Positions 2,091 through 8,995 of a stretch of 18,089 bases of DNA are shown here, one piece after another. The stretch covers positions 9,341 through 27,429 of the forward strand of contig JBBITJ010000009.1 of NCBI GenBank assembly GCA_037440825.1. Reading direction: 5' to 3'. Made by a program: the position numbers and the translations under genes. Numbering within the stretch: the stretch's first letter is position 1; each line of letters starts with the position of its first letter. Below the pieces are notes generated by a model. It was given only the letters and a program-made list of their open reading frames with translations. It was not told the origin of the DNA and searched no databases. Origin of the DNA: Candidatus Micrarchaeota archaeon (GTDB taxonomy: Archaea > Micrarchaeota > Micrarchaeia > Anstonellales > Bilamarchaeaceae).

Positions 2091-2257
2091 GGGCCCGTAG
2101 CGCAGCCTGGATAGCGCGGCACTCTCCTACACATATTCCTTTTCTTTTGCGAAAAGAAAAGGTCTGAGTGGTTCACCCCAAAAGAAAAACGATTTTCTTT
2201 TTAGTGAATTATTGTGGAGAGAGGTGAAGGTCGTGAGTTCAAATCTCACCGGGCCCG
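2091..2257 (+). tRNA. tRNA-Arg(CCT) with a 92-nt intron at canonical position 37/38 (intron 2130-2221)
   Basis: Acceptor stem GGGCCCG/CGGGCCC, D-arm GCGC/GCGC, anticodon CCT at 2126-2128, T-arm GTGAG-TTCAAAT-CTCAC. BHB: CTCC (2124-2127) pairs with GGAG (2216-2219), with 3-nt bulges TA|C and AG|A. CCA is not encoded. Confidence 0.95.
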
Positions 2258-7361: not shown

Positions 7362-7905
7362 AACCAAGAGGAAAGTGCTCCATATAATCAGCGGAGCTGT
7401 TTTCCTCGCGTTCCTGCTCGCGTTCGGGAGGACGCGGCTGATAGGGCTTCTCGTGGCGGTGCTTCTCGGCGGAATCCTTACGATAAACCTGCTCATGATG
7501 GGCTGGAAATTCCCGATTACAGACTGGTTCATAAGGAATTTCGAGAGGCCGAGGATACGGTTTCCCGGATATGCGACTGCGTGGTACGTGGCAGGGCTGC
7601 TCATAGCCACGACGCTGCTGCACTCCGAAGGCGAGATAGCTGCGGTGATATGCGCGCTCGCGTTCGGGGACGGCGTTTCCGCCATCGCAGGGGAGAGGGG
7701 AAAGCGGAGATTGCCGTACAACAAGGAGAAGACCGTGGAGGGTATGGGGACGTTCGCGCTCGGCACGCTGCTCGCTTTCCCTTTCGTGGGGTGGATCGCG
7801 GTGCCGTTCGCGCTGCTTGCTGCGGTGTTCGAGAGCCTTCCGCTGGGCATAGACGACAACTTCTCCGTGCCGCTTTTCGGAGTGGTTTTTTTCTACCTGC
7901 TTTAG
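7351..7905 (+). CDS. Dolichol/phytol kinase-like (SEC59/DGK1/VTE5, CTP-dependent) membrane kinase
   Basis: Motifs RKVLHI, LAFGDGVSAIAG, KTVEG and DDNFSVP. The ATG at 7351 overlaps the end of the PAP2 gene. Confidence 0.88.
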   Translation: MGNETKRKVLHIISGAVFLAFLLAFGRTRLIGLLVAVLLGGILTINLLMMGWKFPITDWFIRNFERPRIRFPGYATAWYVAGLLIATTLLHSEGEIAAVICALAFGDGVSAIAGERGKRRLPYNKEKTVEGMGTFALGTLLAFPFVGWIAVPFALLAAVFESLPLGIDDNFSVPLFGVVFFYLL

Positions 7906-7906
7906 G

Positions 7907-7934
7907 CGGAACCTGAAACACAAGGCAGGAAACC
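7907..7934. repeat. Degenerate 7-bp tandem array
   Basis: Units CGGAACC TGAAACA CAAGGCA GGAAACC. Confidence 0.55.
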
Positions 7935-7973
7935 ACTTTTTAAACCGTTTTCAGCATATAATTCCTATAACAT

Positions 7974-8123
7974 GCCAAGGTAGCTCAGTTGGCTAGAGCG
8001 CTAGACTCATATAAACTGTTATGTGAGTTATGAGCCCTTCGGGGCGATGATATGAAAAATGCGTTCTGCACAGGTTTCTTTTGAGAAATCTAGAGGTCGG
8101 GAATTCGAATTTCCCCCTTGGCA
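7974..8123 (+). tRNA. Elongator tRNA-Met(CAT) with a 76-nt intron at 37/38 (intron 8012-8087)
   Basis: Acceptor stem GCCAAGG/CCTTGGC plus A73, anticodon stem CTAGA/TCTAG, anticodon CAT at 8008-8010, T-arm GGGAA-TTCGAAT-TTCCC. BHB: CTCA pairs with TGAG (8082-8085), bulges TA|T and AA|A. The GCC start fits elongator Met rather than initiator or Ile2. TATA TTTTTAAA lies near 7937-7944. Confidence 0.95.
8019..8052 (+). ncRNA. Putative intron-encoded box C/D-type guide module for Cm34 of tRNA-Met
   Basis: Guide TTATGTGAGTT (8019-8029) is complementary to GACTCATATAA (8004-8014). It is followed by box-D-like ATGA, the hairpin GCCC-TTCG-GGGC and GAT-GA-T, which together give K-turn geometry. Confidence 0.7.
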
Positions 8124-8156
8124 ATAATTTTTCTAATCCTTCCCTCCTCGTGCCGT

Positions 8157-8185
8157 CGTTGCACGGTTTCCAGTTGCGCGTTTTG
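8157..8185. repeat. Degenerate 7-bp tandem array (NGTTYYN)
   Basis: Units CGTTGCA c GGTTTCC AGTTGCG CGTTTTG, abutting the dtdA stop codon. Confidence 0.55.
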
Positions 8186-8995
8186 TCAAATGCGCCTTAT
8201 CTCAATGCCATACTGGTTCGCAAGCTTCTCTATTTTCTCCCTCTGCTCCTTGTTCACGCCCTTCTTGTCCAGGAGTATCGCGGCCGGAGGCTCGACGTTC
8301 TTCTCCAGCGCCTGCCTGAACGTGTCTTCCGCGATTGAATCTGCACGATACTTGGGGAGCATGTGCCCGAACGCCATGCCTTTCTCTATCGCGTATCTGG
8401 TGAAGACAGGGGCGTAGTGCCCGCCCCCAACGCCGAAGAAGGTTTCCTGTCCCGAGTTTCGCGTTCCGCCTTCGGTTATCGCCTCGAATACTGATTCCGC
8501 AATCACTTTCGCTGCAAGGGGATTTTTCCACTCGGGTTCGGAGCTTCCTATTTCCACGAATATTATCGGTTTTGATATTGTTGGGCCGTGATGATCGACT
8601 TCGAAATTCACGTTGAAGCCGAGGTTGTATTTCAGGTTCTTCCAGTGCATTTTCTGAAGGAGGGTTTTCTGCATGCTCGCATAGGAAATATTGAGCGTCC
8701 TGGGGCTTCCGCCGTGCTCGGCCTTGTCCCAGTTGCCAGGTATGTGGACAGTCAGGCTCTGCAATTTCATCTCGCTCCTGTGCGGCGAGAGAACAATAAA
8801 ATAATCGCCTTCGCAATCAGTCGGAACATTCAGGGAGCGGTCGAATTTCGTGTCGATGAGCCTTGCCTTTCCGCATTTCCATTCGCCTTCCCCCGAGGGC
8901 TCGAAGCCCAAGCCCATGAGCTCGCGCGATATGTTGTCGGACGCATGGTTTTCCGCAACGGAGGTCATGGAGGAGAAAAGTATTGACGGAATCAT
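8186..8995 (-). CDS. dtdA: Archaeal D-aminoacyl-tRNA deacylase (DTD2)
   Basis: Motifs SPHRSE, SLTVHIPGNW, EVDHHGPT, FVEIGS, GGGHY and GHMLPKY. Confidence 0.93.
   Translation of the reverse strand: MIPSILFSSMTSVAENHASDNISRELMGLGFEPSGEGEWKCGKARLIDTKFDRSLNVPTDCEGDYFIVLSPHRSEMKLQSLTVHIPGNWDKAEHGGSPRTLNISYASMQKTLLQKMHWKNLKYNLGFNVNFEVDHHGPTISKPIIFVEIGSSEPEWKNPLAAKVIAESVFEAITEGGTRNSGQETFFGVGGGHYAPVFTRYAIEKGMAFGHMLPKYRADSIAEDTFRQALEKNVEPPAAILLDKKGVNKEQREKIEKLANQYGIEIRRI

Follow-up and report, generated by a model that had tools for sequence, protein, structure and literature searches.

Results

An elongator-type tRNA-Met gene is split by a 76-nt intron

The window, that is, the whole 18,089-nt stretch of DNA that was analyzed, carries an elongator-type tRNA-Met(CAU) gene at positions 7974–8123 of the plus strand, which is split at the canonical 37/38 site by a 76-nt intron. 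In silico splicing, with nucleotides 8012–8087 taken out, gave a 74-nt cloverleaf that ARAGORN called as tRNA-Met(cat). As a correction, the gene ends at A8123 and does not extend beyond it. The parts of the gene and its flanking signals are as follows:

7939–7944 (+): candidate archaeal TATA/box A, TTTAAA, ~30 nt upstream of the mature 5' end (judged from sequence)
7974–8011 (+): 5' exon, tRNA positions 1–37, with C34 at 8008 and A37 at 8011 (sequence and ARAGORN call on the spliced product)
8012–8087 (+): intron, 76 nt, at the 37/38 position (sequence and ARAGORN call on the spliced product)
8088–8123 (+): 3' exon, positions 38–73, with discriminator A8123; CCA is not encoded (sequence and ARAGORN call)
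8128–8132 (+): T5 run, likely transcription stop (judged from sequence)

The TTTAAA at 7939–7944 and the T5 run at 8128–8132 would fit a free-standing archaeal transcription unit. TTTAAA box A elements have been reported upstream of nanoarchaeal tRNA genes (Randau 2012, PMC3491384). The gene appears to encode elongator tRNA-Met and not tRNA-Ile2, because its acceptor stem starts with G1-C72, its anticodon stem (CUAGA/UCUAG) is without the three G:C pairs of initiators, and its acceptor GCC... differs from the GGGCC... of the tRNA-Ile(GAU) of the same genome.

In its default mode, ARAGORN called no tRNA in the whole window and missed this gene; with introns allowed, it found the gene with a 76-nt intron but misplaced the intron and miscalled the anticodon. 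At the gathering score, no Rfam family covered the tRNA-Met locus. With E ≤ 10, the region 7900–8200 returned nothing besides a CRISPR-DR32 match on the minus strand, which we rejected as chance (E = 3.4; 16.4 bits versus a gathering score of 48). The module described below is a simple sequence signature by which tRNA-Met genes missed by default ARAGORN and Rfam can be annotated.

The window holds a second intron-bearing tRNA gene at 2091–2257 (+), with an Rfam tRNA score of 41.8 bits and a 94-nt intron. Its anticodon was read as CCU (Arg), while ARAGORN with introns miscalls it as Lys(ctt). That intron contains two A/U-rich hairpins and a CUGA, and we found in it neither an antisense to its own anticodon nor a K-turn that could be drawn.

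The intron carries an antisense element in register with C34, followed by a potential K-turn

Within the tRNA-Met intron, we located the following elements:

8004–8014 (+): target strand of the antisense, G30–A37 plus the first three intron nucleotides (by hand; the helix also occurs in MFE structures)
8019–8029 (+): antisense (guide) UUAUGUGAGUU, in which G8025 pairs with C34 (sequence)
8030–8033 (+): D'-like box AUGA (sequence)
8034–8045 (+): hairpin GCCC-UUCG-GGGC, which gives the K-turn its canonical (C) stem (sequence, fold, and covariation)
8046–8053 (+): 3-nt bulge GAU, then GA and UAU; the C'-like box AUGAUAU occupies 8047–8053 (sequence)

The original prediction had described an 11-bp pairing with two G-U pairs between this antisense and the anticodon arm, a guide lying 4 nt from its target, a wobble C34 facing the N+5 position, and K-turn geometry behind a box-D-like AUGA. 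Direct reading of the sequence bore out each of these. The duplex between 8019–8029 and 8004–8014 consists of nine Watson–Crick pairs and two G.U pairs (G8023.U8010 and, at one end, U8029.G8004), with U8019-A8014 as the outermost pair at the other end, and the two strands are separated by the 4-nt loop 8015–8018. The fifth nucleotide upstream of A8030 is G8025, and its partner is C8008, the wobble C34. The antisense directly abuts the D'-like box and with 11 bp falls within the ~10 to 12 nt of a C/D guide. Behind the box, GCCC (8034–8037) and GGGC (8042–8045) form a 4-bp stem closed by the UUCG loop (8038–8041), followed by the bulge G8046 A8047 U8048. For G8049 and A8050, tandem sheared pairing with A8033 and G8032 is possible, and U8051.U8031 comes next in the predicted K-turn. 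The boxes are degenerate, as the C' box fits RUGAUGA at five of seven positions and the D' box fits CUGA at three of four.

Chance complementarity next to an ordinary intron hairpin could in principle account for this arrangement. The region is AT-rich, G.U pairs were allowed, and 12 of 5000 mononucleotide shuffles of 8015–8087 also reached an 11-bp run against 8001–8014. The predicted fold of 8001–8093 was more stable than expected (z = −3.55), with none of 200 dinucleotide shuffles as stable. Conservation, as judged from the sequences of relatives below, is a stronger argument against chance than these shuffle statistics.

The module is conserved in related and more distant archaea

A DNA search in 61 related genomes, including that of the window, matched 38 of them and returned 30 tRNA-Met loci. 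All 30 loci carried UGAGU-K, NUGA, a hairpin, and RAUGA in this order and with identical spacing. A strict expression of this pattern fitted 24 loci, and the other six deviated either in a single letter or through a long insert in the hairpin. An exact pattern search found one copy each in 40 of the 61 genomes and none (0/61) when the pattern was read backwards as a control; five further genomes carried one-letter or long-hairpin variants of the module. No match to the module pattern was found in 16 of the 61 relatives, the completeness of which is 71 to 100%. The preservation of the antisense, of its spacing to the box, and of the K-turn in relatives, on which the original prediction had been made to depend, was thus seen in 30/30 loci and in 40/61 genomes against none in the control. 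The feature is real and conserved.

A stricter pattern, applied to one genome per prokaryotic species, found at least 120 loci in named archaeal genome records. Among the matches listed, most were labeled Micrarchaeota, with others labeled Woesearchaeota, Nanoarchaeota/Nanoarchaeia, Aenigmatarchaeota, and Iainarchaeum/Diapherotrites. The matches listed further included six Hadesarchaea/Hadarchaeota, three "Marsarchaeota," and a set of "uncultured Methanosarcinales" bins; labels are given as deposited, and we do not vouch for the last two. One carrier, L068, is the complete genome of Micrarchaeum A_DKE, which is cultured together with other organisms. From 150 tRNA-Met loci among the matches listed, both exons could be placed in 137, which gave 127 distinct elements. 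The 13 others (L033, L051, L078, L084, L087, L088, L100, L122, L132, L138, L142, L143, and L149) were dropped as the parser rule did not find their 3' exon. From L032 onward, the search pattern itself fixes the boxes and the register, so that information comes from the hairpin, the linker, and the tail alone; the set of 30 loci from the DNA search is less biased.

Covariation of the hairpin and a constant register to C34

In the 30 loci of the DNA search, the core UGAGU(U/G) was present in 29, the remaining one reading UGAAU. The D'-like box was ATGA in 17, CTGA in 7, TTGA in 4, GTGA in 1, and AGGA in 1. The (G/A)AUGA motif was found in 28, with AGUGA and UAUGA in the other two. Both GA dinucleotides were kept in 29 of 30 loci, the exception being L028 with its AGGA box. 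The register was constant in all 30: one free nucleotide (G/U) is followed by U-A31, G-C32, A-U33, and G-C34.

By contrast, the hairpin changes in sequence and retains its pairing. In the 127 elements among the matches listed, pair 1 was kept in 125 (shuffle mean of 97), pair 2 in 124 (shuffle mean of 61.3 and maximum of 76), and pair 3 in 110 (shuffle mean of 66). Pair 2 was CG in 64, GC in 47, AT in 5, TA in 4, and TG in 4 of these elements. RNAalifold, run on 29 of the 30 DNA-search loci (without L008, whose hairpin holds a 97-nt insert), recovered the anticodon/antisense helix as well as the 3-bp stem; the counts of double-sided changes were 9 and 4. A variant of the hairpin region is seen in the six Hadarchaeota-labeled records among the matches listed, in which the boxes are joined by 7 to 8 nt without a stem (K-loop form). 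The K-loop is the form taken by the internal C'/D' motif in canonical archaeal C/D RNAs.

Together, the covariation of the hairpin, the RNAalifold consensus, and the pattern search refute chance complementarity: conservation with covariation extends over several phylum-level labels, and the probability that we would still assign to coincidence is negligible.

The length of the duplex, in turn, differs between lineages. In the genus of the window, it amounts to 10 to 11 bp and reaches three intron nucleotides. Counted as a contiguous run from A31 in the 127 elements among the matches listed, it is 5 to 7 bp in 86, 8 to 12 bp in 40, and just 1 bp in a single element. A duplex of 11 bp is a genus feature, and the family-wide core of 5 to 7 bp is short for a C/D guide. 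Pairing across the exon-intron junction was more frequent than expected from permutation. L004, from the same genus, shows compensatory changes at intron nucleotides 1 and 3. Among the matches listed, 123 of 228 junction cells (i1–i3/g9–g11) were paired as compared to 92.3 ± 4.7 upon permutation, and 0 of 2000 shuffles reached the observed count; in the DNA-search subset, 46 of 72 were paired versus 36.7 expected, and 3 of 2000 shuffles reached the observed value.

These duplexes bear on whether the element might act only after its release, with the excised intron, linear or circular, guiding Cm34 in trans on other pre-tRNA-Met molecules or on other CAU tRNAs (initiator or tRNA-Ile2). Other tRNAs with a CAU anticodon probably share ACUCAUA, the stretch of the target that lies in the exon. 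Published work also speaks for the trans mode: a stable RNA accumulates from the tRNA-Met intron of Nanoarchaeum equitans, with 31,500 reads in the supplement (Randau 2012, PMC3491384); tRNA introns, including that of tRNA-Met, circularize in Haloferax (PMC7714728); and the pre-tRNA-Trp guide has been reported to act in trans (Singh 2004, cited in PMC7994747). However, the core duplex of only 5 to 7 bp in most elements among the matches listed is weak for a bimolecular reaction, which weakens the trans mode. The longer duplexes gain their extra pairs from intron nucleotides, which requires a substrate that has not yet been spliced. A 4-nt loop connects target and guide into a tight hairpin in several lineages. 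Moreover, neither an initiator tRNA-Met nor a tRNA-Ile2(CAU) gene was found as another target in the assembly of the window's genome by ARAGORN, by an anticodon-arm scan, or with the Rfam tRNA model; these genes may be split, intron-rich, or unassembled. Overall, we consider action in trans unlikely.

Additional introns were seen in the tRNA-Met genes of some relatives. L004–L008 and L010, from the same genus, have an extra intron of ~30 to 55 nt in the D-loop, ~15 nt into the gene, which the tRNA-Met gene of the window does not have. At the order level, L012, L014, L017, L018, L021, L026, and L031 carry an extra T-arm insertion, so that tRNA-Met is split by two introns.

No second guide unit is conserved

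Canonical C/D guides are bipartite, and the original prediction had noted only one K-turn/guide unit. This holds for the window as well as for the family comparison (127 elements among the matches listed): we found no C box 5' of the guide in the window or in the family alignment, and no second box pair or second guide is conserved across the family. Among the matches listed, introns span 37 to 191 nt, and in many the 3' splice site lies only 6 to 10 nt beyond the C' box. The shortest introns, of 37 to 48 nt, leave no room for a second box pair.

One further complementarity was considered as a second guide:

8061–8067 (+): GCGUUCU, a 7-bp complement to 7995–8001 (the D-stem's 3' strand plus positions 26 and 27) (MFE structure of the whole pre-tRNA)

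Read as a D guide, the segment GAAAAAUGCGUU with CUGC (8054–8069) is not conserved as a family feature. Some families contain GGCGCU and CUGA 10 to 12 nt past the C' box, complementary to tRNA positions 23–28. We rejected a second guide because no more than 23 of 127 elements among the matches listed have CTGA as the 4-mer preceding the BHB strand, the spacing ranges from negative to 87 nt, and there is no partner C box. Complements resembling 8061–8067/7995–8001 occur in some families at variable spacing.

The guide fold and the splice fold are mutually exclusive

The 3' half of the intron contributes to two further structures:

8072–8091 (+): 8-bp hairpin, 8072–8079/8084–8091, which would bury the 3' splice site and the BHB strand (predicted fold)
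8082–8085 (+): UGAG, which pairs as 3' strand with C8006–A8009 in the 4-bp BHB helix; the 3' splice site is 8087|8088 (by hand)

The splice fold has the layout of an hBHBh' motif, in which the helix C8006–A8009/U8082–G8085 is flanked by the bulges U8010 A8011 U8012 and A8086 A8087 A8088. Beside it lies the anticodon stem (8001–8005/8089–8093), and the BHB fold was feasible when forced. Of the 127 elements among the matches listed, 64 have an H helix of 4 bp in this motif and 54 one of 3 bp. Because the guide duplex and the BHB helix both use the CUCA of C8006–A8009, the two folds exclude each other, as originally predicted and as can be read directly from the sequence; the guide duplex also covers the 5' splice site. 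In the pre-tRNA-Trp intron, too, there is competition between the guide and BHB folds.

For the whole pre-tRNA, the guide fold was the MFE structure at −54.6 kcal/mol as compared to −45.6 kcal/mol for the BHB-forced fold, a difference of 9 kcal/mol, these energies being predictions for RNA alone, without tRNA tertiary structure or proteins. The guide fold was lower in predicted energy in 23 of 29 loci of the DNA-search set and in 96 of 126 of all elements among the matches listed; the BHB fold was lower in 6 of 29 and 29 of 126, respectively. The mutual exclusivity of the helices and these predicted energies are what would suggest a methylate-or-splice switch. In L003, from the same genus, the intron tail has a CUCA of its own that can pair with the BHB strand UGAG (UCUCA-UCUU-UGAGA), and it is possible that this CUCA is a decoy that also hides the splice helix.

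The predicted folds raise the question of whether the K-turn might recruit L7Ae only, with the antisense hairpin serving as a folding or timing device for splicing and neither fibrillarin nor methyl transfer being involved. L7Ae binds K-turns in several unrelated archaeal RNAs. In the window, the guide fold is predicted to hide both splice sites, and a single K-turn, short duplexes, and degenerate boxes would all be compatible with such a device. However, a folding device needs neither an NUGA placed exactly one nucleotide from the helix nor C34 at N+5, and both were found in 30/30 unselected loci. The K-loop variant of the Hadarchaeota-labeled records, which mimics genuine C'/D' motifs, also argues for a C/D function, as does the fact that Cm34 of elongator tRNA-Met is a known C/D-RNP product elsewhere (PMC4033218). 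We therefore regard a role confined to L7Ae binding as quite improbable.

The genome encodes the C/D machinery

The genome of the window (875 kb, 45 contigs, 95.6% complete) encodes fibrillarin (289.7 bits), Nop5 (188 bits), and L7Ae (104.2 bits); the absence of fibrillarin or Nop5, which would have counted against the original prediction, was not observed. Among the 61 relatives, fibrillarin was above the cut-off in 58. Of the three in which it was not, two carry the element, G016 (91% complete) and G046 (82% complete).

In a crude scan, we also found a candidate for a textbook bipartite C/D sRNA in the window's genome at C23:741 (+), with GUGAUGA, 12 nt, CUGA, 3 nt, AUGACGA, 12 nt, and CUGA. 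On the basis of this candidate, ordinary C/D guides are probably present there too. Two further copies of the 10-mer antisense plus box in this genome (C12:3477 and C23:4441) have no K-turn behind them. By eye, the module was not found in its other intron-bearing tRNAs, and the tRNA-Trp(CCA) gene at C7:38881–38974 (−) has a 21-nt intron without C/D boxes. A loose genome scan for NUGA-hairpin-NAUGA gave 154 matches, mostly in coding DNA.

Discussion

A candidate single-K-turn guide acting on the unspliced pre-tRNA

The explanation that we favor, and consider probable, is that the intron contains a single-K-turn guide of the box C/D type for Cm34, which would act on the unspliced pre-tRNA and compete with the splice fold. 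In the unspliced transcript, the antisense 8019–8029 would pair with the anticodon loop and the exon-intron junction, and AUGA and AUGAUAU, flanking the Watson–Crick hairpin 3' of the antisense, could form one K-turn. L7Ae would bind this K-turn, on which Nop5 and fibrillarin would assemble, and fibrillarin would 2'-O-methylate C34, opposite the fifth guide position. Given a single K-turn per RNA, two such RNAs might share one Nop5 dimer, or the particle might be a true hemi-RNP. As long as it persists, the guide duplex would block the splice helix and cover the 5' splice site. Methylation would come first, followed by refolding of the RNA and then by excision of the intron. In Methanopyrus kandleri, introns are removed after modification (PMC3695527).

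A more far-reaching version of this proposal, which we put forward only tentatively, is that the element forms a natural, obligately single-K-turn C/D particle in cis, with guide and L7Ae platform both supplied by the substrate, in which tethering replaces the second box pair and methylation of C34 serves as a checkpoint before splicing. If this single-K-turn reading in cis is true, its occurrence in several DPANN lineages and in Hadarchaeota would point to an old design, and the element might serve as a model of the first origin of guide RNAs within the RNAs that they target. If C34 is methylated via the element, it would represent a natural one-motif C/D guide conserved in well over 100 species-level genomes and run counter to the reconstitution-based view that specificity needs a bipartite RNA. 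It would also provide a compact example of splicing that is gated by modification, in organisms whose genomes are very small, and would explain why this tRNA intron is kept and structured across DPANN lineages.

Comparison with known systems

The idea is less unusual than first thought, as there is an established precedent in pre-tRNA-Trp and an N. equitans intron RNA in print. Across the text of the freely accessible literature searched, no paper assigned C34 as the target of a tRNA-Met intron, and among the papers listed, Randau 2012 alone contained the phrase "tRNAMet intron." The main text of Fujishima 2011, on ARMAN-2 introns, makes no mention of tRNA-Met or box C.

A close counterpart is the N. 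equitans RNA, which the original prediction had mentioned and which is real. Randau 2012 (Genome Biol 13:R63, PMC3491384) describes the elongator tRNA-Met's 66-nt intron as a stable and abundant RNA and potential C/D box sRNA, in which box D fits the consensus, box C departs from it by one change, and a G:C hairpin is present, and lists its target as "no prediction." The window's intron is of the same type, a 37/38 intron of elongator tRNA-Met with a D box, a hairpin, and a C-like box; host gene and position are the same, and the size is similar (76 versus 66 nt). The printed N. equitans sequence has the same layout, with an antisense to the anticodon loop directly 5' of CUGA, a short G:C hairpin, and GAUGA, and in our reading of it C34 is also at the fifth position upstream of the box. 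In contrast, the tail of the window's intron is longer and has extra hairpins. The accessible portion of Randau 2012 makes no mention of self-targeting of C34, of a single K-turn, or of an occurrence beyond Nanoarchaeum.

The euryarchaeal pre-tRNA-Trp guide (Clouet-d'Orval 2001; Bortolin 2003; Singh 2004) likewise resides in the intron of its own target and directs Cm34, together with Um39, through duplexes that span the exon-intron junction (PMC7994747). As proposed for the window, this makes the unspliced precursor the substrate. However, the pre-tRNA-Trp RNA is fully bipartite and within about 100 nt holds two guides, one for C34 and one for U39, whereas the element of the window has a tRNA-Met host, one K-turn, one guide, and no match to an Rfam family, and is thus distinct from the pre-tRNA-Trp guide.

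Position 34 of elongator tRNA-Met is also served by stand-alone guides. In haloarchaea, its Cm34 is made by a box C/D RNP, sR-tMet (Joardar 2011, listed in PMC4033218); Pyrococcus has C/D guides for position 34 of tRNA-Met (PMC7994747); and in humans, SNORD97/SCARNA97 is a stand-alone C/D guide for Cm34. They address the same nucleotide as the candidate guide described here, presumably through the same enzyme family. In contrast to the latter, which sits in the intron of its substrate, they are separate genes that act in trans and have two box motifs.

Last, with one box motif and one guide, the element resembles the synthetic hemi box C/D RNPs. Single-site hemi-RNPs were reported to be active but unspecific, and the bipartite architecture to be "absolutely conserved" in nature (Hardin and Batey 2006, PMC1635284). 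Whereas those particles were engineered and lost their site specificity, the element of the window is natural and conserved, and its guide is tethered to its target. Such tethering could restore the specificity that is lost in hemi-RNPs.
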